Shown: positions 44,650 through 57,407, counted from the first letter of the stretch. The stretch is 60,235 bases of DNA from a virus (IMGVR_UViG_3300045007_000064:1-60235); one strand, 5' to 3'. Numbers and translations are program-made. Notes: generated by a model from the sequence alone, not told the origin.

Positions 44650-45063
44650 TCACTTTTCGTTTTCTTCGACAGGAACCGGAGGCAGAACCTCCGCCACCTC
44701 CCAGGTGTCAGGCTCCTCGCCCTCCAGCAGGACGCCGGAGAAGTAGGCACCGTCTCGGGACGCGGTGAAGTAGTCCCCCGACAGGGACACTTGATCGAAG
44801 CCCAGCTCTTCCAGACCGGAGACCTTGGTTTCCACGACCCGGGAGGAGTAGACAGAGCTACCCGCCGCCACACCGCCCAGGCCGAAGATAATCAAGCAGA
44901 CAAGAGTGATGGCTGTCCACATGGTGAACATCTCACTCTCCGTCTCGATGTCCCGGAACCTGAAGTGCAACACGAGGCCAACCGCGAGGACGCCAAGAAC
45001 AACTCCGCCCGCCACGTAGAAGCTGGTGTAGTCCCAGCCTGGGTCTTGAATCTCCAGGATCAT
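44650..45063 (-). CDS. membrane protein, DPGW-family paralog
   Basis: MILEIQDPGWDY plus 2 TM. Confidence 0.8.
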   Translation of the reverse strand: MILEIQDPGWDYTSFYVAGGVVLGVLAVGLVLHFRFRDIETESEMFTMWTAITLVCLIIFGLGGVAAGSSVYSSRVVETKVSGLEELGFDQVSLSGDYFTASRDGAYFSGVLLEGEEPDTWEVAEVLPPVPVEENEK

Positions 45064-45800
45064 TACATCTTCTCCTTCAGAGTCGGCATCAGGCGGATGC
45101 CCTTACGGTCCATCACGCCCAGCAGCCCAGGGAACTCGTGCGCCAGGACGGACACAGTGCGAACCGTGTCATGCGCGAAGCACCGCTGCAACTCCTCACG
45201 GATGCGCTCGACAGAAACCTCTTCGACCTTATCCATAACGCTCAGGTTATAGATGGCGGTTCGAAGGTCGGCAGACAGCTTGAAGTCCTTGGTGATCATG
45301 AACCGCAGCGCTCGGAAGACACGCAGGGCGTCCTCCAGAAAGCGGTCACGCGGCTCACCGACAGCTACCAGCAGGCGCTTGCTCAGGTGGAACTGACCGT
45401 CGAACAGGTCGATGATGTTACCGTCCTCGTCCTCCGCCATCGCGTTCACACTGAAGTCGCGGCGGCTCAGGTCATCCTCCAGGGTGCCAGGAACAACCCA
45501 GTCAGGGCGGCGACCGTCCGAGTACGGACCCTCACGCCGAGCCAGCACGAAGTCCGCCGTGATCTTCTCGTTGGGGTGGTCCTTCGGGAACTTGGCCCGG
45601 ATGGTCAGGTACTCCGGGGTTTCCAGGAAGATCGTGAACCCCAGGTCACGCAGATGATCCGCCATGAACGTGTAGGCCTCCTCGATGGAGTTGACGACCT
45701 CAGGATTCACGACCACCGTGTAGTCAAAGTCCTTGACGGGCAGACCCAGCAGGCGGTCGCGCACTGCGCCGCCCACCAGGTACATCTTGATGTCTGTCAT
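45063..45800 (-). CDS. class II tRNA nucleotidyltransferase (CCA-adding/poly(A) polymerase family)
   Basis: YLVGGAVRDRLLG..KDFD, DLSRRDFSVNAMA, EDALRVFRALRF; leaderless. Confidence 0.9.
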   Translation of the reverse strand: MTDIKMYLVGGAVRDRLLGLPVKDFDYTVVVNPEVVNSIEEAYTFMADHLRDLGFTIFLETPEYLTIRAKFPKDHPNEKITADFVLARREGPYSDGRRPDWVVPGTLEDDLSRRDFSVNAMAEDEDGNIIDLFDGQFHLSKRLLVAVGEPRDRFLEDALRVFRALRFMITKDFKLSADLRTAIYNLSVMDKVEEVSVERIREELQRCFAHDTVRTVSVLAHEFPGLLGVMDRKGIRLMPTLKEKM

Positions 45801-45809
45801 GCTTCCAGC

Positions 45810-46580
45810 TTACGAGGTGGTGAGAGGAATGTCAAGCCCAGCCTGGAACTTGGCGAACTGCGCCTCCACGTCCCGCAGACGGTTGCGAGCGTAGGAGGGG
45901 TTGTAGAACACGGCGTCCTTGTCGAACACCTCCCGGTAGAGCGGGATCAGCGGCATATACCGGTCGATGAAGTACTTGGCCTTCGGGTCGTCGTACTCGT
46001 AGTGGTGGTGCAGGGACCCCGCGTTGTCCACGAAATCGCTGAACTTCACAATGCGGCTCGACTCGGACCGCAGGGCGATCTTCTCCACATGCTCCTGATA
46101 CTGCTTGACCTTATCTGCCTTGCTGATACCCTCGGGGAGAATGGGGTTCGAGACGGCATCCACGATAGCCGCCGTGGTGTACCCGAACTTGCTCCCGATG
46201 AAGTTGAACGCTGCGGTCCGAGCCTCCTGCTCGGTCGCACTCCGCGGCACGCCGTCGAAGTCCGCGAACTCGAAGGCGTGATCCTCCACCGTGTCATGGA
46301 GCACAGCCGCGAGATAGGTGTCCACGTCCTTCACGCCGAGGGCGGTCAGACGCAGAGCCACCCGAAGCGGATGCTCGATGTACGGCGGGTTCGGCATCCC
46401 ACCGCGACCACCACGACGAACGTCGGTGCGGTGCAGGTAGCTCGCCACCTGGATCGCATCGTTCAGTCGCTCGGTGTATCGCACCGGGAACCGAAGCTCG
46501 AAGTACGCACGCAGCTTGGCCGCGAGGCTGACGGAATCCAGGTCCTTCAGCGGCTGGTGCTCATTCCGGAAGGTAATCAC
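45810..46580 (-). CDS. RelA/SpoT-family HD hydrolase (small alarmone hydrolase/Mesh1-like)
   Basis: ASYLH...PYIEHPLRVA...AAVLHDTVED...VKFSDFVDN. Confidence 0.85.
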   Translation of the reverse strand: MITFRNEHQPLKDLDSVSLAAKLRAYFELRFPVRYTERLNDAIQVASYLHRTDVRRGGRGGMPNPPYIEHPLRVALRLTALGVKDVDTYLAAVLHDTVEDHAFEFADFDGVPRSATEQEARTAAFNFIGSKFGYTTAAIVDAVSNPILPEGISKADKVKQYQEHVEKIALRSESSRIVKFSDFVDNAGSLHHHYEYDDPKAKYFIDRYMPLIPLYREVFDKDAVFYNPSYARNRLRDVEAQFAKFQAGLDIPLTTS

Positions 46581-46990
46581 TTGACCGGCTCCGTGATGCG
46601 CCAGCGGTCGCCGTCCGCGTGGACGATGGACCCCATAGACCCGTCCTCGGTGATGTAGAAGTCGATCTGACCGTCCGCATCCACCAGAGATACCGCCTTC
46701 TGGCCGTTCTCGTTCAGAGCCTCCAGAATTCGGTCGTCCTGGTGACCGCTGTACGTGACCGATCCGGTGATGCCCGCCGCCGCGGCGGCAACGAGCAGGA
46801 CGACCAGCGTAGCCGCACCCGTACCACCGGCCCAGGTGACCAGGGTCTCCGCCGTATCCCGGCTCGACTGGAACCGGGAGAGCACGGCGAACAGGATCGC
46901 GAGGACGAGAAGCACCGCAGGGGCGATCATGAACATCGAGAACTGGAACCAGTCCCAACCCGGGTCTACAATAGTGATGATTTCTGACAT
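46577..46990 (-). CDS. membrane protein, DPGW-family paralog
   Basis: MSEIITIVDPGWDW plus 2 TM; leaderless. Confidence 0.8.
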   Translation of the reverse strand: MSEIITIVDPGWDWFQFSMFMIAPAVLLVLAILFAVLSRFQSSRDTAETLVTWAGGTGAATLVVLLVAAAAAGITGSVTYSGHQDDRILEALNENGQKAVSLVDADGQIDFYITEDGSMGSIVHADGDRWRITEPVK

Positions 46991-46999
46991 AGCCTCAGC

Positions 47000-47428
47000 C
47001 TACTCCTTCTCCACGTTCATGTCAAGCAACATGATCTGCCATGTCATCTCGGGGTACTCGATGATGACCCCGCGGACATACTGGTTATCCTTGACGGCGG
47101 TGAACTGGTACCTCTCGGACTCGTCCTCGTAGTTGAGGTAGCCCAGCTTCTCAAGCTGGTGCTGTTTCTCGGCCTCGATAGCGGTGGATCGCATGGTTGA
47201 ACTTACGATAGCATTCACCCCCGCCCCCGCGGGGACCGCGCAAGCCGCAATGATAAGCCCGATGAAGGCAGCGTGGCGAAGGCCCCCTGCCACACGACGG
47301 GTGGAGGCCGTGAAGGACAGGAGCCAGACGAGGCCGACCACGACAAAGAGAATCGCCACACCTACCGCGGTCCACTGCCAGCCGATCCAGGACCAGCCCG
47401 GGTCTTCAACAATGATCTTGTCGATCAT
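47000..47428 (-). CDS. membrane protein, DPGW-family paralog
   Basis: MIDKIIVEDPGWSW plus 2 TM. Confidence 0.8.
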   Translation of the reverse strand: MIDKIIVEDPGWSWIGWQWTAVGVAILFVVVGLVWLLSFTASTRRVAGGLRHAAFIGLIIAACAVPAGAGVNAIVSSTMRSTAIEAEKQHQLEKLGYLNYEDESERYQFTAVKDNQYVRGVIIEYPEMTWQIMLLDMNVEKE

Positions 47429-48501
47429 GATTCCTCGTTCTCATATTCTGCGCCGATGCGCTTGTACTTGATGGGGTTGGCGAGTAGCGGCTCAATCGCA
47501 CCCAACGCTGCACCCATTCTGCCGAGGAGAGTGCTCTCCTCCAGGATGACGTACGGAAGCTCATACTTCTCGCAGAAATCGATCCAGTACTGGTCGCTGG
47601 TTTCCCGCTTATCCCCGCCGTAACGGAGCGGGTCAGCCTCGAACGGGATGTTGGAGCGCAGGATGATGTAGAGGTCACTCTTGGTCAGCTTGGCAGCCTC
47701 CAGAAGGGCCTCCGGCACGGTCTCCGGCTCCCAGTTCTCCCAGAACCCGAGGGTCGTAAAGAGGTCGGTGTCCTGGAGCACGAGAGGCGCGAGGACATTC
47801 TCGTACGCGGTTTCCTGGAGGGCCTGTTGACCCTCCCAGATGCTCAGCATCTTCTCGTAGGTGACCTCAGCGCCGACCATCTCCAGGTAGGGGCGTGCCC
47901 ATTCGAAGAGCTTGGTCGTCGGGATGCCGATATCCCAGTAGGCGTCGGAGAGAGCGCGCGTCAAGGTTGTCTTGCCGACGCTTTCCGCTCCGAACATTGT
48001 CACCTTCTTCTGAAGGTAATGACGGAACTCGGGAAGAATCTGATCCCAGCCGCCCTTGGTGAACGGTGCGTTGCGTGCGCTCGTCCCCTTGGTGTAGCGC
48101 GACCAGCGGTCGGGGTCGAAGGGCATGAAGACACCGTTGGCGCGCTTCGCCAGCTCGACACCGTACTGCTCAGATGCCACGATGTAGTCGCCGTCTCGGA
48201 AGCCGTAGCGGTGAAGGTTACCGACCCAGTTGGCCCAGAAGGCATCAGGGGTGTCGCCTGGCTCCTGAGGGGTGTCCTCGTTCTGCCACTCCAGGTGGAA
48301 CCGAGGAGCGCCTTCCAGGAGGTTGAGGTTCAACAGCGCCGCCTCCAGCGCCTTCGCGCGCTCCGTAACCATCGGCTCGCTGGGCTGGGTGTTGAGGAAG
48401 AGGACGACCTCGTTCACGTCCAGGTGCCCCGCGAACTTCACCAGGTCCAGATGGCCGAACGTCGGCGGCAGGGCCGTCATCAGAACATATGCCTGAGTCA
48501 T
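47425..48501 (-). CDS. nadR: NadR-like bifunctional NMN adenylyltransferase / ribosylnicotinamide kinase
   Basis: PPTFGH nucleotidyltransferase motif; P-loop GAESVGKTTL; EWAR; DTDLFTT. Confidence 0.8.
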   Translation of the reverse strand: MTQAYVLMTALPPTFGHLDLVKFAGHLDVNEVVLFLNTQPSEPMVTERAKALEAALLNLNLLEGAPRFHLEWQNEDTPQEPGDTPDAFWANWVGNLHRYGFRDGDYIVASEQYGVELAKRANGVFMPFDPDRWSRYTKGTSARNAPFTKGGWDQILPEFRHYLQKKVTMFGAESVGKTTLTRALSDAYWDIGIPTTKLFEWARPYLEMVGAEVTYEKMLSIWEGQQALQETAYENVLAPLVLQDTDLFTTLGFWENWEPETVPEALLEAAKLTKSDLYIILRSNIPFEADPLRYGGDKRETSDQYWIDFCEKYELPYVILEESTLLGRMGAALGAIEPLLANPIKYKRIGAEYENEES

Positions 48502-49238
48502 TCCCAATCCTTCCCCTGGAATCCAGCCTGGATCGCAGAGCGGGCAGGCTCGGAGAACTCTGCCACGCGCTTGCGGATGGTCGCCTTGATCTGAGCGTGC
48601 TGCTCGGGCCACTTCTTGGTGGTCGGAGGATCGTGCAACTCGTCACCGATACGCACGCCGAGGAGGTCGTCGGTGATGTACCACTCGGTGAGGATTTCAC
48701 CGGAAGCACGCAGCTTCTCGACGTAGTGCTTGAATCCCTCCACGACATGGATGTTGCCGACGAAAACCCACGGGTCACCCTCGATGTCATCGAAGCCCTC
48801 GCCCTTGTGCTCCATGCCTCCCGAGATGGGGAACTGGAAGATCGGCGCGAACTCGTTCGACTTGCCGCTGAACGGACGCCAGTTGAAGAAGATGTACGCC
48901 TCGTTCAGGTTACCCCGGTAGTCGTTGATCTTCAGCAGGATGCCGTCAGACCAGAGCATGATCGTGTGCTGGGGATCGCCGTAATTGCTGGGACCGTGGT
49001 GGACCCAGACGGGGGTGAACCCGGCATCACGGGCGATATCTACCGCCTCCGTGAACGGGATGTTACGGTAGAAGTCACCCCGCAGCATCAGCTCGTCCTT
49101 CTTGCGCTGTGCGCTCTCCTGGAGGAGTAGGAAGCCGAGACCCTGGGTGCCGGGGTCTTCCTTGTAGCTCTTGCCGGTGACCTTCTCCGCCTCCAGAAGG
49201 GGGTCGAAGTGGAGGATGCTGTCGAAGTCTTCGCTCAT
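48498..49238 (-). CDS. hypothetical protein
   Basis: 246 aa; leaderless TTGACG-17-TAAGCT-6-ATG. Confidence 0.8.
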   Translation of the reverse strand: MSEDFDSILHFDPLLEAEKVTGKSYKEDPGTQGLGFLLLQESAQRKKDELMLRGDFYRNIPFTEAVDIARDAGFTPVWVHHGPSNYGDPQHTIMLWSDGILLKINDYRGNLNEAYIFFNWRPFSGKSNEFAPIFQFPISGGMEHKGEGFDDIEGDPWVFVGNIHVVEGFKHYVEKLRASGEILTEWYITDDLLGVRIGDELHDPPTTKKWPEQHAQIKATIRKRVAEFSEPARSAIQAGFQGKDWE

Positions 49239-49247
49239 GGTTACAGC

Positions 49248-49442
49248 TTACTGTACTTTCTCGGATACGTCAAGTCTCCGCCAGTTGTCCAGCGGCTCTG
49301 CATCGGTGATGAACGGCTTCTCGCAGGAGTGCATCACGAGACGCGCATCCGGGGAGAAGTCGAACTGGACACTCCCAGCGGGAGCCTCGTCTACAACTGC
49401 GAGACGAGCGCTCCCGGTGAGAGTCTTAGGTCCGTCAGACAC
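49248..49442 (-). CDS. hypothetical protein
   Basis: GTG overlapping the end of pnuC. Confidence 0.55.
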   Translation of the reverse strand: MSDGPKTLTGSARLAVVDEAPAGSVQFDFSPDARLVMHSCEKPFITDAEPLDNWRRLDVSEKVQ

Positions 49443-50280
49443 CCTTGACCACACGGCCTTCAGAGGGCGGGAGGGTGTCGTAGAGAGCCTTGGTGGCCTC
49501 CACGTCAGCCTCAGCGTAGGCGACCAGCTTGGGATCGAACTGCACGTTGTTGACGGCGACCACCGGGGATTCATCCAGGATGTCCGTACCGGCTTCCTTC
49601 ATCGACTGACGCCACAGGATGTAGCCCGGGATGTTGGCGAAGAAGAAAATGAGCTGCTGGACGGCGGCGAAGGGGGCACCAGCGGTGAAGTAGAGCGTCA
49701 CGCCGACGATGTTGACCGCACCCCAGACGAACCAGGCGAAGAGCACCTTGTTGTCGAGGAGGAACTGAGCGGCGATTGTCAGGACCAGAATGGCAGCGTC
49801 CCAGAAGGCGAACTGTCCACCGAAAGCGGTCGAGATGAAGTACGCACCCGCGTAGGTAGCGGCGGTCGCGAGGATATAGGCAGGAATCCACTTGGCCTGG
49901 AGCTTGTGAACCGGGCGGCTCTTGGCGTCCGGACCCCAGCGGAAGAAGCCGTAGACGAGCTGACCCACCAGGTACGCCGACAGGATCGCGGAAGCGAGCA
50001 GTCCGTACTGGAAGTACGCGATGGCGAACGCGGCGGATGCGGCGAAGCCGAGGGCGTAGGTGAATCGGCGCTGCTTGATGGACAGATAGGTCGCACCGTA
50101 GTTGATGGTCGCACCCGCGACCTCAAACCAGTTCGGTGCGCCGGTCAGCCAGCCCATGCCGTAGGCGAGGGCGAAGGTCAGACCGGAGAGAACGACTGCG
50201 ATCACCGCAGCGATGAAGAAGTCGTTCTTCAGGAAGCGCACCAGACCTGAGGTCGGTGCGGGGAGATAGGGCGTGCTCAC
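49435..50280 (-). CDS. pnuC: PnuC-like nicotinamide riboside transporter
   Basis: multi-TM; YGFFRW, WDAAILVLTIAAQFLLDNK, W..W...N. Confidence 0.85.
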   Translation of the reverse strand: MSTPYLPAPTSGLVRFLKNDFFIAAVIAVVLSGLTFALAYGMGWLTGAPNWFEVAGATINYGATYLSIKQRRFTYALGFAASAAFAIAYFQYGLLASAILSAYLVGQLVYGFFRWGPDAKSRPVHKLQAKWIPAYILATAATYAGAYFISTAFGGQFAFWDAAILVLTIAAQFLLDNKVLFAWFVWGAVNIVGVTLYFTAGAPFAAVQQLIFFFANIPGYILWRQSMKEAGTDILDESPVVAVNNVQFDPKLVAYAEADVEATKALYDTLPPSEGRVVKGV

Positions 50281-50429
50281 TGGAAGGTTCCTTTCAGGAC
50301 GGCAGAAAAGTACTCATGAAGAGCCTCGTACTGCGCTTCACCGATGTACAGATTGTCCACGGTGATCGCCAGCGTCCCGGGTGTCTCCCGCACGGCTAGA
50401 CCGTTGGAGGCTACGAATTCTTTGCTCAT
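50277..50429 (-). CDS. 50-aa hypothetical protein
   Basis: leaderless TTGACG-17-TACGTT-6-ATG; GTGA overlap with pnuC. Confidence 0.65.
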   Translation of the reverse strand: MSKEFVASNGLAVRETPGTLAITVDNLYIGEAQYEALHEYFSAVLKGTFQ

Positions 50430-50450
50430 GCCTCCAACGTAGCAGCTATC

Positions 50451-50633
50451 TTAGCTGCCGTCAAGCCTCGGACCCAAGGTTCCACAGAAGACGCAGACGG
50501 CACGATCCGCACCCACCGCCACCTGGAATCGGTGGAGGGAGCGCGGACCGTTCGGTACGCCCTTATCGCACGGAAGCTGAGTAAAGTTGGCGCTGTTACT
50601 CAGATGTGTGTTGACCATACTAACGTCGGACAT
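50451..50633 (-). CDS. small protein with C..H...CVFC
   Basis: 60-aa ORF. Confidence 0.6.
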   Translation of the reverse strand: MSDVSMVNTHLSNSANFTQLPCDKGVPNGPRSLHRFQVAVGADRAVCVFCGTLGPRLDGS

Positions 50634-50808
50634 GCTGCCCCCAGATTTGAAGAGACTTCAGGGTAATGGACTTCTCGGTAGACTCATCGAGGTAATACGG
50701 CCCTGTTCCGTAGAGAACTACCTCAAAGTCGTCGGGAATACCTGATCCCCGAAGGATTCGAGCGGTAAGATGTCCTTCGTCTACCCAGCGCAGGGCGCGG
50801 TCAGTCAT
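50620..50808 (-). CDS. hypothetical protein
   Basis: coupled ORF. Confidence 0.6.
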   Translation of the reverse strand: MTDRALRWVDEGHLTARILRGSGIPDDFEVVLYGTGPYYLDESTEKSITLKSLQIWGQHVRR

Positions 50809-50989
50809 CGTCCCGCACCCGTACAACGCCGCCGACGAACCAGTTATCCTGCTCGGCCTCGTAGCCGTGCGGGAGGCTGATCTGTGCCGGGTAGTGGCGG
50901 TCGATGGCCTTCTCCGAGGCCTCGTCCGCGTCGTCTGCCTCTACGAAGACGCTACGGTAAAGCGGGGTCTCGAATACAACTTCAAACAT
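50801..50989 (-). CDS. small acidic protein
   Basis: EA.D..EA pattern; GAGGAAG RBS. Confidence 0.7.
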   Translation of the reverse strand: MFEVVFETPLYRSVFVEADDADEASEKAIDRHYPAQISLPHGYEAEQDNWFVGGVVRVRDDD

Positions 50990-51170
50990 TGCCACGGTTC
51001 TTGGCTTCCTCTCGGGCCTTAAGAAGCTTCGCGTCCCAGTACAGCCAGTACGAGGGGACCGTGTACAGCATGAAGAAATCACGCATTCCACGGAAGAAGA
51101 TTCTCTTAATTCGGTTCATAGAAACAACTGTAGCTGATGGATCGGAGCCTGTCAACATACTCACTCCCAT
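50982..51170 (-). CDS. hypothetical protein
   Basis: start uncertain. Confidence 0.55.
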   Translation of the reverse strand: MGVSMLTGSDPSATVVSMNRIKRIFFRGMRDFFMLYTVPSYWLYWDAKLLKAREEAKNRGNV

Positions 51171-52432
51171 CCAGAATCAACGTTCGCCTTAGGCCAGACG
51201 GACCGAATACGGTTCTTCACGGCGTCCGACAGCTCTCGGTCAACAGACGCATTGTGCTTACCGAGAAGCTGACGAACGGACCCATCCGGGGCCAGTTCGA
51301 TATTCGACACCATGTCTTCGCCCTTCATCACGGCAAAGAGAAGAGTCGATCCGTCAGCGGCTTGGTGTCCGTAACCGCTGATGCAGTTATGCATACGATT
51401 ACTCCAGTCGAAAAGCTCCTTCGTGCTCTTCGGGGCGATGATGGAGAACCCGTTATCCTCACCAAGAAACTTCTCAGCCTGCTCCTTGAGCACGATTTCT
51501 CGGTCTGCCGTCTCGATTCTTCTGAAGATACGAGGGGCAACCGTGTCGTGTAGGTCGCGCAGGTCACGGAAACCGACATCTTGCAGCGTTTCCATGTTCC
51601 GGAAACTGTCCCGGAACAACATGGTGAATTCCTCGTCTGGATTTCTGGTTAGTCTCCGGAGCTGAGTCTCGGTGCCTGTACGGAGGAATCTCCGTAGCTC
51701 TCGCAAGCCATCTCTTGTCCTGAAGAGAGAGTCTATGTCTCGTACGGTATCGATCTGAGCCTCAAGAATGCTCACGATCCAGTCCGTAGGAACGATGCCC
51801 TGGAACGTCATGACGATCTGGAGTGCCAACGTCCGCTTCGCGTGAGCACTGCCGTATCGGGAGGGCTGCATACCTGCCAGCGCGCGAGGCACCCCCTTCT
51901 GGAAGTGCTTACCCAAAATCTGCCGAGACAAACCCGTCACCGTCTCGTTTCGGAGAAGGTTAGGGACGCCAGGGGACATCGGGTCGAAGTCGGGAAGTAG
52001 AGGGAACTCCTTCTCGACAAGTGCTTTCATGGACTCGAACCCGAGATGCTTGGCCCCCACGTCCATCAGCTCGACCTCGCGCCGGTAGTACCGAGCGTCG
52101 TCTTGAATCGCGTCGAGGAACAGAGGCAACCTGTTCCGAACTGGCCCCATCTTTGATCTACCAGAACGGCGACCTCTGATGTCCCGAGGCACAATTCGTT
52201 CCTTGGAGTAGACCGCGAGCTTTCCCGTCTTCATCGAGTAAAACTCTACCCTGGTTTCCTGGAATCGGCTCCACGTCTTCCCGTTGTCCTCTCGGACTCC
52301 AGAACTGCGGTCGGAGTGGGCGACCATAAACCCAGAGGGAGTAGTGAAGACAGAACTCCATTTTTCCGGCATATACATCCCTGAGGCGGAAGTGATGCTG
52401 TCAGAGTCCTTCCGGTAGAGCAACATGGTCAT
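51161..52432 (-). CDS. PcfJ-like domain protein
   Basis: PKSTKELFDWSNRMHNCISGY...IEL...VRQLLGKHN. Confidence 0.8.
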   Translation of the reverse strand: MTMLLYRKDSDSITSASGMYMPEKWSSVFTTPSGFMVAHSDRSSGVREDNGKTWSRFQETRVEFYSMKTGKLAVYSKERIVPRDIRGRRSGRSKMGPVRNRLPLFLDAIQDDARYYRREVELMDVGAKHLGFESMKALVEKEFPLLPDFDPMSPGVPNLLRNETVTGLSRQILGKHFQKGVPRALAGMQPSRYGSAHAKRTLALQIVMTFQGIVPTDWIVSILEAQIDTVRDIDSLFRTRDGLRELRRFLRTGTETQLRRLTRNPDEEFTMLFRDSFRNMETLQDVGFRDLRDLHDTVAPRIFRRIETADREIVLKEQAEKFLGEDNGFSIIAPKSTKELFDWSNRMHNCISGYGHQAADGSTLLFAVMKGEDMVSNIELAPDGSVRQLLGKHNASVDRELSDAVKNRIRSVWPKANVDSGWE

Positions 52433-52794
52433 GCGTAGCGCTCGATCCCGTAGTTGGCACCCTTCTTCACGGCAATCCAGGTCGCGGTAACGACACCCTT
52501 GATGAGGTCGCTCTGGCTGATCATCTCCACGAGCGTCTGTCCGAAGAAGGGGTAGTAGGTCCCGGTGTTGACATCCTGGAACCAGAACCGCGCAGCGGAA
52601 CGTCCGCGCTCCAGGGACATGATCTTCAGAGTCGCCTCGAAGGGTTCATTGTCCCGGTAAGTAACGCCAGAGGCGGGGTGCTCCGGTTCTCCGAAGGTGT
52701 ACTCCAGAAGAGCCGGGAACTCTTCGATCTTGTTGCCCACCCACATACGCTTCGTGCCGTAAGGGACTTCCTTGAGGCTATTCTTCTTGGGCAT
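52429..52794 (-). CDS. hypothetical protein
   Basis: GGAGAAG RBS; ATGA overlap. Confidence 0.75.
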   Translation of the reverse strand: MPKKNSLKEVPYGTKRMWVGNKIEEFPALLEYTFGEPEHPASGVTYRDNEPFEATLKIMSLERGRSAARFWFQDVNTGTYYPFFGQTLVEMISQSDLIKGVVTATWIAVKKGANYGIERYA

Positions 52795-52969
52795 TTTCTT
52801 CTCCAGGATGTAGGATGGACATATCAGAATGGTCTTGAATCAAGGGCTTCCCGTCCAGTCCAAGGAGCCGGGGACGGGAAGGGGCCTGGGACCCGAAGTG
52901 GAAAATCTCTTTCCCTGGTGTGTAATACACCGCTCCGGACCCCAGGCCACTTCTCGGGTCTCTGGTCAT
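52778..52969 (-). CDS. hypothetical protein
   Basis: TGATG coupling. Confidence 0.5.
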   Translation of the reverse strand: MTRDPRSGLGSGAVYYTPGKEIFHFGSQAPSRPRLLGLDGKPLIQDHSDMSILHPGEENAQEE

Positions 52970-54519
52970 CAGACGATGTGACCCAGGTTCGCTCGGACCT
53001 CAGCGAAGGTCTGCGTCTTGACGAACTTGCCGTCCTCCCAGACCGTGCGGAGCTGGTCGAACTCGGTGCCCTCGGTCTCGGCTCCGGTGTGCTTCGTCGT
53101 GCTGTCCACGAGGAAGTAGCCGACGCTTCCGTCTTCCTTCTCGTAACCGGCGACCGCAATGCGACCGCGAGCCGACTTCTTGGTACCGTTGTCCGTGGCG
53201 GGGTCCTTGTAGATGTCGATGCCCTTTCCGTTGACCTGAATCCAGGTCGCCTTCATGGCACTCATGAACGTGTCACGGGTCTGGTACTGGTAGGTGAACG
53301 AGCCGACACCGAACACCACGTTGGTGCTGGCGAAGCCCTTGGCCTCCAGACGCTCCATGATCGCCTTGGCGCGGTCGTAGGTGATCGAGTCACCGTAGAT
53401 GACGCCGATGTGCGAGTCCAGAACCTTGTAGCCCTGCTCGGTGACGGTGCCGCCGAAGGTGTCCCACAGCAGCTCCACGACGCCCTTCTTGGAGGCAGAG
53501 CGCCCCGGGGAGGCCATAAGGGACTCTGTGTTGTCACGGTACTGGGAGTGGAATTCCTGGGTCCCCGTCAGGATGTCCACGGGGTCGCCCGAGTCAGGGC
53601 GGATGACGAGCTTGCCGTCACGCGCCATGATCTGATCCTTCAGCTCCGGCAGGACGTTTGTGAGGACGTTCCACAGGTCGTAGCTGTCGGAAACCGCCGA
53701 GAGAATTCCCTTGGGGTTGACGGCGAGCATGCGGCGGAAGTAGCCCAGCTCATCCTCGGGACCGAACGCGGTCGCGACCGAGTGCTCCGTGGCGGGGACC
53801 GATCCGATGACCAGGCCGTCAGCAGGACCGTAGTAGTCCTGCGCGGTCGGGAGAACGTTCAGGTTGTCCGAGCCGGTGAAGCTGAGCGCGTGACCCAGGC
53901 CCGACAGCGCGGCGGCGTGAACGCCAGCCATGCCACGGAAGCTGAAGTCGTGACCCTGCCACTCGACGCCCGCCGTGGAGCCGGTCGTCTTGACCGCGTG
54001 CTCGTCCAGGAGCTTGCGGAAGCGGTCAGCGATGGTGGCGCTCGTTGCGGCCTGCCAGACCTCAGCCGACATCGGGGTCTCGATGTAGTTCGTCAGCCAG
54101 TAGAAGTCCGGGTGGGTGTTCTCGACCGTGAACTTGGGAACACGGAGCGGAACCTTGACGCCCTCGGGGAGCGAGCGGAAGCGGAGCGGCAGGTATCCGA
54201 GACGGTGGAGCGCACGGATGTGCTCGACGCCGACACCCACGGCGATGTCCGGGGTCAGGATGGAGTCGAGGAAGTTCGCGTACTGCTCTGCGACCTCATC
54301 CTCGGTCGCCGCGAAGAACGGCTCCCACTTCTCGGTGATCCACGAGTGGAGGAACGCCTGAAGACCGAAGTGAACGGTCTCCTCCACGCCCTCGATGCGC
54401 GAGCCACGGTCGGTGAAGTTGGAGAGGACGTACTCGGTGCCCTCGGGATACATGTGGATGTGTCCCAGCTTGTAGGCATCGGTCTCGGTGAGAGGACGGA
54501 TTGCGTCGAAGTTGCTCAT
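52969..54519 (-). CDS. NAMPT-like protein (nicotinamide phosphoribosyltransferase or Namat)
   Basis: TDAYKLGH, WLTNYIET, HDFSFRG, SVPATEHSV, VSDSYD, VIRPDSGDP, IYGDSIT, KDPATDNGTKKSARG. Confidence 0.92.
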   Translation of the reverse strand: MSNFDAIRPLTETDAYKLGHIHMYPEGTEYVLSNFTDRGSRIEGVEETVHFGLQAFLHSWITEKWEPFFAATEDEVAEQYANFLDSILTPDIAVGVGVEHIRALHRLGYLPLRFRSLPEGVKVPLRVPKFTVENTHPDFYWLTNYIETPMSAEVWQAATSATIADRFRKLLDEHAVKTTGSTAGVEWQGHDFSFRGMAGVHAAALSGLGHALSFTGSDNLNVLPTAQDYYGPADGLVIGSVPATEHSVATAFGPEDELGYFRRMLAVNPKGILSAVSDSYDLWNVLTNVLPELKDQIMARDGKLVIRPDSGDPVDILTGTQEFHSQYRDNTESLMASPGRSASKKGVVELLWDTFGGTVTEQGYKVLDSHIGVIYGDSITYDRAKAIMERLEAKGFASTNVVFGVGSFTYQYQTRDTFMSAMKATWIQVNGKGIDIYKDPATDNGTKKSARGRIAVAGYEKEDGSVGYFLVDSTTKHTGAETEGTEFDQLRTVWEDGKFVKTQTFAEVRANLGHIV

Positions 54520-54572
54520 GGGAGCCTTTCTGTCGTTGATAGTTTCAGACTACACCCTCGAAGGGAAGCTTG

Positions 54573-54764
54573 TCAAGCCCCGGGAAGACCCATTACCTCG
54601 TCAACGTCGATGCACCCGGCATCGATGAGACGTTCCGCCATGACGACATGCTCAGGTTCGACAGGGTGGTGAATACCCTCCCCGTCCCCGATGAGCACCC
54701 GGGCTACCCGGGTCCGTAGTTGGCGGTAGCCGCTCTGAGTCAGTTCAGACGCTTTGGTTCCCAT
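54573..54764 (-). CDS. hypothetical protein
   Basis: AAGGA RBS. Confidence 0.65.
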   Translation of the reverse strand: MGTKASELTQSGYRQLRTRVARVLIGDGEGIHHPVEPEHVVMAERLIDAGCIDVDEVMGLPGA

Positions 54765-54773
54765 TGTTGTTCC

Positions 54774-54974
54774 TTAATTCCAGATTTCCCACGGCCAGAG
54801 GATTCCGTCCGGGGTCCAACACAGTTCCGACTTACCGCCGAACATGAATCCGCCGCGCTCCGCACACTCATTCAGGTACGGGATGCCCCAGAATACCCAG
54901 ACGAGAACCGCGGTTACGAGGAGAAGTCCCAAGATGACCTTATACCGGTGCTTGCTCCAGAACGAGTCCTTCAT
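54774..54974 (-). CDS. small membrane protein (TM plus C...GG...C)
   Basis: ATGA overlap. Confidence 0.7.
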   Translation of the reverse strand: MKDSFWSKHRYKVILGLLLVTAVLVWVFWGIPYLNECAERGGFMFGGKSELCWTPDGILWPWEIWN

Positions 54975-55870
54975 GGCAGGATTTCCTGGTCGAGATACGG
55001 CACGATCTTGTGGACCTTCAGGCGGGTGCCGACAGGCCAGTCAATGCTGGTGCCCTGGACAACCGAATCCTCCATGAAGTACGAGTCGGTCGTGTGGATC
55101 GTACCGAAGTGCTCCAGAAGAGCATCGATACCCTTCGAGAAAATGCCGTGCGTGACCCAGAGGTCCACGCGGTCCTTCGGGAGACCGGTCGCCTCAGCGA
55201 GGCCGATGAACGTACCGCCGCCGTCACAGATGTCATCCACGACCAGCAGCTTGCCCTCGTCGGGAAGCGCATCGACCATGTGGAATCCGGACAGCTTGCC
55301 GGTCTTCTCGTCTCGGGTCTTGCCCGCCTGGTAGACGGGCACCCCCATGAGGCGCGCGGCGCGGTTGGCTCGGTCGTGTGCGCCCTTGTCCGGAGCGATG
55401 ACACCCACGTAGGTGCTCGGGCGGGTGTCGTGGTAGCCGTCCTGAATCTGGCTCTTGATAAGCCGCTCCACCGGGTAGACGGTGAGGTTGCGCAGGGCAT
55501 CCTCGAAGTAGCCGAGAGCCGCCTCGGAGTGCGGATCGAGGGTGATGGTCTGGTCGGGATTGACCAGCTCACCCAGGAACTCGGAGTAGACGCGAGCGCC
55601 GATGACATCGCCTCGGTCCTGGCGAGCACCAGGAAGGTACGGGAGGATCAGCACGGTCTCCTCGCCGCGAGCGGCGCACAGCTCCGCCCACATGGCGAGC
55701 ATGAAGAGCTGATCGTGCGAGTGTCCCTGGACGATGGCGATCTGGTGGGAGAAGATACCACGAGGGGCCTCGGTCTCCTGGATGTGAACGGCCCCGTCCG
55801 GGAACACGATGGGCTTGAACGGTGCATCGACCATGAAGCCGTTGACGGTCTTGGCGCGGAAGGTGATCAC
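54971..55870 (-). CDS. ribose-phosphate pyrophosphokinase-like protein (Prs or Adps)
   Basis: FPDG, ILPYLPGARQDR, LDPHS, IAPDKGA, VVDDICDGGGTF, VTHGIFS. Confidence 0.9.
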   Translation of the reverse strand: MITFRAKTVNGFMVDAPFKPIVFPDGAVHIQETEAPRGIFSHQIAIVQGHSHDQLFMLAMWAELCAARGEETVLILPYLPGARQDRGDVIGARVYSEFLGELVNPDQTITLDPHSEAALGYFEDALRNLTVYPVERLIKSQIQDGYHDTRPSTYVGVIAPDKGAHDRANRAARLMGVPVYQAGKTRDEKTGKLSGFHMVDALPDEGKLLVVDDICDGGGTFIGLAEATGLPKDRVDLWVTHGIFSKGIDALLEHFGTIHTTDSYFMEDSVVQGTSIDWPVGTRLKVHKIVPYLDQEILP

Positions 55871-56796: not shown

Positions 56797-57195
56797 TTAG
56801 GACTCTACGCTGAGAACCCCGCCGTTGTCAAGATACCGGATCACAGGGATGCCCGCTTTCGTGGCCTGACCTGCGGTATGTGTGGCTCCCTTGGACCCAT
56901 CCTTGATGAACGCGAGGCAGACATCGGCTCCAAGATCGACCATAAGCTGGTTCCGGATGAATCCGGCTGCACGGCCCTCGTTCTCCCAATCAGCCGCATG
57001 AGGCTCCTCCACCGCCCAGGAGACTGATCGTGCGATATCTCGGGCCATGCGGTCGGCTCCTCGGGAGGCATCACCATGGACGATGATAATCTCCTCTTGA
57101 ACAGGGCAATTCTCCTTCACCCAGTTGAAAATAGCCAGGTAGATAGCCTCTTTAGATTCCCAGGTCCGAGACCCAGTGATGAGAATCCGCTTCAC
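56797..57195 (-). CDS. YspA/SLOG-family (DUF2493-like) protein
   Basis: RILITGSRTW, IVHGDASRGAD, AGFIRNQLM, GSKGATHT. Confidence 0.85.
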   Translation of the reverse strand: MKRILITGSRTWESKEAIYLAIFNWVKENCPVQEEIIIVHGDASRGADRMARDIARSVSWAVEEPHAADWENEGRAAGFIRNQLMVDLGADVCLAFIKDGSKGATHTAGQATKAGIPVIRYLDNGGVLSVES

Positions 57196-57407
57196 GGGAG
57201 GTCTACTCCCATAACACCGGCAGTCCAGGCACCCTCTAGTTCCTCCATAAACCAATGAGAATTGAAGACCTTGCGGGCCTGTCGTCGGTAGCTCGTCTTG
57301 ACTGGCTCGATGGCCTGCTCCCAGGGAACATCTTCCGCCTGGTGCTCATTCAGGTCAATCTCGTACAGATTACGAGCAAGGGCTTCTTCTCGGATGGAAA
57401 CGTTCAC
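57192..57407 (-). CDS. hypothetical protein
   Basis: GTGA overlaps. Confidence 0.7.
   Translation of the reverse strand: MNVSIREEALARNLYEIDLNEHQAEDVPWEQAIEPVKTSYRRQARKVFNSHWFMEELEGAWTAGVMGVDLP

Follow-up and report, generated by a model that had tools for sequence, protein, structure and literature searches.

The virus stretch IMGVR_UViG_3300045007_000064:1-60235, called here the window (60,235 nucleotides, the opening 60 kb of a virus record of 171 kb whose completeness is about 89%), contains on its minus strand a gene for a stand-alone RelA/SpoT-type HD hydrolase, placed directly upstream of a gene for a short class II CCA-type nucleotidyltransferase. The hydrolase (45810..46580, GTG start, 256 amino acids) is similar to the small alarmone hydrolases (SAHs), and the transferase (45063..45800, 245 amino acids) consists of a head and neck only. 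This arrangement had been proposed in an earlier note made from the sequence alone and was borne out by the analysis reported here. With moderate confidence the two proteins are considered to be separable enzymes, expressed together, in a phage kit for the maintenance of tRNA 3' ends, and not an obligate two-step machine. Both kinds of gene have already been described in phages and are annotated in GenBank relatives. Of the isolated relatives, the Microbacterium phages Zooman and Big4 (about 190 kb) stand nearest; their DNA is about 80% identical across the pair, and there the genes are labelled "SpoT-like ppGpp synthesis/degradation protein" and "tRNA nucleotidyltransferase".

The HD and transferase genes are translationally linked in one operon-like block. 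The GTG start of the HD gene overlaps the stop of an upstream open reading frame (ORF) for a small membrane protein (46577..46990, minus strand) in the sequence GTGA, and this start is supported by homologues which begin at the equivalent position (MITFR...). The transferase starts 9 nucleotides past the HD stop and is preceded by GGAAG, while its own stop overlaps the start of another small membrane protein gene (44650..45063, minus strand) in the sequence TAATG. The bounds of the operon were drawn from gene overlaps only, because a scan for promoter and terminator consensus sequences inside the block gave counts not above those of shuffled sequence.

The hydrolase and the transferase

Compared with the sequences of solved structures, the HD protein matches only Rel, RelA, SpoT, MESH1, SAHs and a (p)ppApp hydrolase, aligned over HDTVED. 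Its score with Pfam HD_4 (PF13328) is 22.3 bits, under the gathering cut-off of 27.2, and the generic Pfam HD is matched at its cut-off (22.0 bits); many members of its family do pass HD_4 in precomputed annotation. The AlphaFold2 model of the protein (predicted local distance difference test, pLDDT, 93.7) finds as its top Foldseek matches RelH, an SAH of Corynebacterium, together with MESH1, SpoT and Rel (target template modelling score, TM, 0.63-0.79), and complexes of MESH1 with NADPH and with 3'-phosphoadenosine 5'-phosphosulfate (PAPS) are also among the best fold matches. The motif set is complete, comprising H, HD, ED (HDxxED) and D/N, plus a conserved Arg ahead of the first His; the residues R59, H70, H95-D96, E99-D100 and D185-N186 are invariant across 49 homologues. 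Judged by sequence and model, the window protein belongs to a divergent subfamily and is a catalytically intact RelA/SpoT homologue (RSH) hydrolase, predicted to be a 3'-(pyro)phosphohydrolase of the RelA/SpoT class that depends on Mn.

Among known systems, the closest likeness is to the stand-alone phage SAHs PbcSpo of Salmonella phage PVP-SE1 and PaSpo of phage SSU5 (PMC7229694), which are alike in the single-domain RSH hydrolase fold, in the H, HD, ED and D-N motifs, in being encoded by a phage and in having no adjoining synthetase. In contrast to typical SAHs, the window protein is about 70 residues longer, with extra N- and C-terminal helices, and it is placed in a subfamily of actinophages and Actinomycetota with only about 20% identity to solved SAHs. 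Two other origins of the protein were tried and rejected. The synthetase domain (PF04607) is absent from the HD protein and was found nowhere in the 171-kb genome record, at its completeness of about 89%, which rules out an antitoxin of a phage-borne toxSAS; nor does a synthetase toxin gene adjoin the SAH gene at this locus, as it does in toxSAS-SAH pairs. A split-off HD domain of Cca was ruled out as well, since hhalign of the HD family against the Cca of phage SSE121 gave a probability of 0.6%.

The transferase scores 68.5 bits with PolyA_pol and matches phrog_24229 ("tRNA nucleotidyltransferase", E 9.5e-57), and its scores are far under the cut-offs of all NCBIfam equivalogs. The class II motifs A-E (GGxVRD/DxD, RRD, D..G, EDxxR..R, R...E) are intact and invariant across 42 homologues. 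Its model (pLDDT 93.7; TM about 0.7 on the query and about 0.45 on the target) overlays the first 220-245 residues of the CCA-adding enzymes of Bacillus, Planococcus, Aquifex, Thermotoga and human, where the protein ends, and beyond roughly the first half of these enzymes, which have 340-520 residues, there is no structural match. In solved class II CCA enzymes the tRNA is held, at its elbow, by the body and tail domains. The lack of an HD tail, claimed in the earlier note, was confirmed by the model, and the tRNA-binding body and tail are absent too. With the class II CCA-adding enzymes (PDB 1miv, 6qxn, 4wc2) and phrog_24229 the window protein has in common the head and neck with motifs A-E, EDxxR and the flexible loop, whereas it is without the body and tail present in every solved one and without an HD domain. 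The short form is not peculiar to the window; it constitutes a large family of 230-270 residues, abundant on phage-sized contigs. A further comparison can be made with multifunctional Cca of the E. coli type (for example gp168 of Salmonella phage SSE121), where a CCA-type transferase and an HD-superfamily phosphohydrolase also occur together; in the window, however, these are two separate genes, and the HD protein is of the RelA/SpoT type and unrelated in sequence to the HD domain of Cca.

RNA repair neighbourhoods and phage tRNA genes

The same-strand neighbours of the short transferase were clustered over 80 viral loci of IMG/VR (L095-L174). Recurrent among them are PNKP, the HAD of "Swiss army knife" RNA repair proteins (HAD_SAK_2), a calcineurin-type phosphoesterase (Metallophos), a T4 Rnl1-type ligase and the RNA ligase phrog_968. 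At 42 of the 80 loci the transferase has, no more than 5 kb away, a phosphoesterase of the end-healing kind (PNKP, HAD_SAK_2 or Metallophos), as it does in 10 of 24 clusters after de-replication at 60% identity; separate counts in 80 control loci seeded with the HD protein gave PNKP 2, HAD_SAK_2 0 and Metallophos 6. It can be said that the short transferase family is habitually accompanied by a 3'-end phosphoesterase. In Arthrobacter phage Racecar, a homologue of the transferase adjoins an RNA ligase and PNK. A protein of about 217 amino acids (phrog_14949), found within 5 kb of the short transferase at 34 of the 80 loci and in Cellulophaga phage phi17:2, is a commoner neighbour than any named repair enzyme.

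For the hydrolase, 48 HD-bearing viral records were searched for RlaP, RtcB and RNA ligase, and the closest cases were read. The clearest island belongs to an uncultivated phage (L007 6431-10673, plus strand) and comprises, in order, Metallophos, cREC_REC, ORFs of 141 and 79 amino acids, RlaP, a second Metallophos and an RSH-type HD protein of 262 amino acids, just before the large terminase; this HD protein, 41% identical to that of the window, is its nearest relative outside the lineage. Two other records (L054 and L057) have the order RlaP, 138-amino-acid ORF, HD_4, and one (L073) the order RNA ligase, 188-amino-acid ORF, HD_4. An RSH hydrolase is thus found less than 2 kb from an RNA-end enzyme in four independent lineages, two of which have a different family of RNA 3'-end nucleotidyltransferase. 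Cases with a repair neighbour are a minority (5 of the 48 records).

In the genome of the window virus, 43 tRNA genes were counted in a 20-kb array outside the window (G000:C1 93203-113361), with CCA encoded in 9 and in none of the other 34; the transferase therefore has a housekeeping job of its own. In M. tuberculosis, two-thirds of the tRNA genes require CCA addition. One of the ARAGORN calls, a tRNA-His with anticodon ATG (110315-110388), is unusual and may be a miscall.

Repair genes are also present in this genome. A profile search located an RNA ligase (PF09414 with the PHA02142 OB domain, phrog_968) inside the tRNA array (L276 81-1154, minus strand, corresponding to G000:C1 ~99980-101053) and a phrog_547 metallophosphoesterase about 28 kb from it (L277 35-706, minus strand, G000:C1 ~71834-72505), and the families of both adjoin the short transferase in other phages. 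In the window, no PNKP or ligase stands next to the transferase, and a tblastn search of the genome record with the RNA ligase, PNK and NADAR of relatives returned no homologue, the ligase located by profile being a different one. As in T4, with its Pnkp and Rnl1, and in the RlaP/ligase/CCA sets of jumbo phages (PMC7824862), the short transferase family clusters in other phages with PNKP, HAD_SAK_2, Metallophos and RNA ligases; unlike in those sets, the repair genes of the window genome are dispersed and the RSH-type HD hydrolase is the sole phosphoesterase adjoining the transferase.

Conservation of the pair and rival explanations

The 3' end of tRNA is the point at which toxSAS, CapRel-type defences and tRNA-end nucleases halt phages by disabling it. 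It has been reported that toxSAS enzymes pyrophosphorylate A76 of the CCA end and that MESH1 or ATfaRel alone restore aminoacylation of tRNA modified in this way, an activity which the authors compare to the 3'-phosphatase of T4 Pnk (10.1101/2021.04.30.441581). The phage SAHs PbcSpo and PaSpo neutralise all five of the toxSAS tested with them in co-expression tests (PMC7229694). What the earlier note had stated about the attack of toxSAS on the tRNA CCA, and about its reversal by SAHs, those of phages included, is in agreement with this published work. Putative targets of this kind are plausible in the host family, because in 27 of the 61 Microbacteriaceae genomes sampled there is a further short ORF with a synthetase domain, five of these ORFs being divergent and about 350 amino acids long.

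The note had gone further and proposed a two-step counter-defence, in which the tRNA end is de-pyrophosphorylated and CCA is then added again. For toxSAS damage the second step is superfluous and the hydrolase needs no partner, because MESH1 or ATfaRel alone restored aminoacylation. What may be kept of the scheme is a looser common part in the upkeep of tRNA 3' ends, which is plausible because the transferases cluster with end-healing enzymes and relatives of the hydrolase sit in repair islands. The computed evidence is compatible both with this and with alarmone removal, the alternative which the note had named. The data observed here are folds, catalytic motifs, operon linkage, a tRNA census and neighbourhood statistics, from which we infer all of the substrates, as well as any hand-over between the enzymes. 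The transferase would add or rebuild CCA on tRNAs, its first job being the phage's own 34 tRNA genes without CCA, and could also work on ends trimmed by nucleases. What the hydrolase would take off is the 3'-pyrophosphate that nucleotides ((p)ppGpp, (pp)pApp) or A76 of tRNA receive from RSH-type enzymes, and it might clear other 3'-phosphate blocks too. Where the end is blocked but otherwise intact, the hydrolase would need no help. On an end both truncated and blocked the hydrolase and then the transferase could act in sequence, and only such ends would call for both.

The prediction of the earlier note which failed is co-occurrence across phages, since the pair is not co-conserved outside one syntenic lineage of large actinophages. 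The two genes are adjacent in five isolated Microbacterium phages, with an ORF of 65 codons between them in Zooman and Big4, and in the metagenomic contigs L091, L093 and L094 (the last being the same as L006); entries matching between two homologue lists suggest about 12 further short contigs carrying both. In all pair-bearing relatives (the five isolated phages and these three contigs) the order NadR, membrane gene, HD, transferase is identical. Among 80 IMG/VR loci seeded with the HD protein a transferase was found in one, of the same lineage as the window, and of 80 bacterial loci none held both genes. A PolyA_pol gene is present in 5 of the 48 whole HD-bearing viral records, and in none of the 10 records at least 90% complete. 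The closest homologues of the transferase outside the lineage, in Racecar and Cellulophaga phi17:2, are in genomes where no HD_4 gene was found. The bacterial homologues of the hydrolase are orphan SAHs of Actinomycetota, having neither a transferase nor repair neighbours; at loci of the Actinomycetota type (L175-L219) a synthetase match within 8 kb was seen only at L203, directly downstream of the HD gene, where it is probably a long RSH. In a quick tree of the HD family, pair-bearing rows cluster but interleave with pairless clades, and between one and four gains or losses of adjacency fit. An independent adjacency in PVP-SE1-like phages was considered and ruled out, as the "hydrolase" two genes past Cca in SSE121 is PTH2-like and the SAH-like ORF is 30 kb off.

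Several of the results weigh against a common function at the tRNA 3' end. NadR is linked to the pair as tightly as the hydrolase is to the transferase, and because of this equal linkage synteny alone explains the adjacency. The sister HD homologues with 52-57% identity (L086, L088, L092) have no transferase and no genes of nicotinamide adenine dinucleotide (NAD) metabolism within 8 kb. Seen from the other gene, just one of the 80 transferase-seeded viral loci has an HD match, a weak one 10 kb off, and the remaining 79 are without such a hydrolase; about 80-90% of the hydrolase-bearing phage records have no RNA-repair neighbour. Without a body and tail the transferase may not recognise tRNA in the usual way, and in the literature no biochemical study characterising the short family was found.

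It is possible, if doubtful, that the two genes are nothing but neighbours, the hydrolase degrading only free alarmones ((p)ppGpp, (pp)pApp) against stringent or abortive growth arrest, the transferase only maturing phage tRNAs, and their adjacency being an inherited order. Such independence fits an adjacency limited to one syntenic lineage and lost in sister clades, the need of 34 of the 43 phage tRNA genes for CCA addition, the orphan state of the actinobacterial homologues, and the jumbo-phage survey in which the two enzymes are filed under separate headings, the HD-alarmone enzyme among counter-nucleotide systems and the CCA enzyme under RNA repair (PMC7824862). It is less easily reconciled with the recurrence of hydrolase relatives beside RlaP, metallophosphoesterases and RNA ligase in independent phages, with the habitual place of the transferase family beside a 3'-phosphoesterase, and with the known action of SAHs on tRNA-PP (10.1101/2021.04.30.441581). 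Should the two genes work independently, the locus would be an unremarkable case of a pair of accessory genes whose presence in large phages is on record. The neighbouring NAD genes raise another thought, which is quite improbable: that the hydrolase, like MESH1, converts NADP(H) to NAD(H) by removing a phosphate, or disposes of some other phosphorylated nucleotide related to NAD, which would help the phage to refill NAD+ against NAD-depleting defences. The homologues at 52-57% identity that have no NAD genes nearby argue against it, as do the relatives in RNA-repair islands, and no NADPH-specific sequence feature was identified in the hydrolase. In its favour the HD gene shares a block with NadR-like, PnuC, NAMPT-like and Prs-like genes, the run of NadR, membrane gene and HD is syntenic wherever the pair exists, two relatives have NADAR just downstream, and the MESH1-NADPH and MESH1-PAPS structures are counted among the best fold matches.

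Closer cooperation than that of separable kit members can be imagined in two forms. In the first, which is improbable, the locus would be a split "heal-and-rebuild" system: where toxSAS or tRNA-end nucleases had left 3'-PP, 3'-P or a cyclic phosphate, the HD enzyme would restore a 3'-OH and hand the end on to the transferase, which has no tRNA-binding domains of its own. If this were true, the healing of RNA ends would be as much the business of phage RSH hydrolases as the hydrolysis of alarmones. In the second, the two proteins would be bound together in an obligate complex, analogous to an E. coli-type Cca in two pieces, in which the HD protein supplies the end-healing and the tRNA binding absent from the truncated transferase. 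The missing body and tail, the tight coupling of the genes and the fusion of an HD phosphoesterase to the transferase in full-length phage and bacterial Cca (e.g. SSE121) are what such a complex would lead one to expect, yet the short transferase does without a hydrolase of this kind at 79 of 80 loci, the HD protein is not of the Cca type, and in Zooman and Big4 an extra ORF separates the genes. No fused HD_4-transferase protein above 448 amino acids was found, which is weak evidence in the same direction, and an obligate complex is held to be highly improbable.

The reading of co-expressed but separable enzymes gives the locus and its relatives in repair islands a use beyond the window, as a tractable actinophage system whose isolated relatives grow on Microbacterium foliorum. 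The questions it could serve are whether an RSH hydrolase acts as an RNA 3'-end healer and how a CCA enzyme works without its tRNA-binding half.

Genes around the pair

Three paralogous small membrane proteins, each with an N-terminal DPGW and a transmembrane helix, are interleaved with the two enzymes and translationally coupled, and none has a Pfam or PHROG match. Two of them are the genes overlapping the pair at either side, the one directly upstream of the HD gene and the one directly downstream of the transferase; the other (47000..47428, minus strand) lies between the NadR-like gene and the first of these.

Farther upstream, on the same strand, the Prs-like, NAMPT-like, PnuC-like and NadR-like genes (47425-55870) make up an NAD+ supply island. 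The NadR-like gene (47425..48612) encodes a nicotinamide mononucleotide (NMN) adenylyltransferase / ribosylnicotinamide kinase with AAA_28 and a match to phrog_3462 (E 2.9e-38), and its likely start is the ATG at 48501. It is followed upstream in the same block by a PnuC-like nicotinamide riboside transporter (49435..50280), recognised by profile matches, then by a NAMPT-like phosphoribosyltransferase of NAD+ salvage or reconstitution (52969..54519) and by the Prs-like gene (54971..55870). The island is flanked by genes, also on the minus strand, for a protein with a YAcAr/YspA-type SLOG domain (56797-57255) and for a PcfJ-like protein (51161-52432). In relatives, a gene with a NADAR domain is located a few genes downstream of the transferase (L091 9989-10444, L093 9842-10306, L002 3855-4367); in phage Cece it is labelled "glycosylase".

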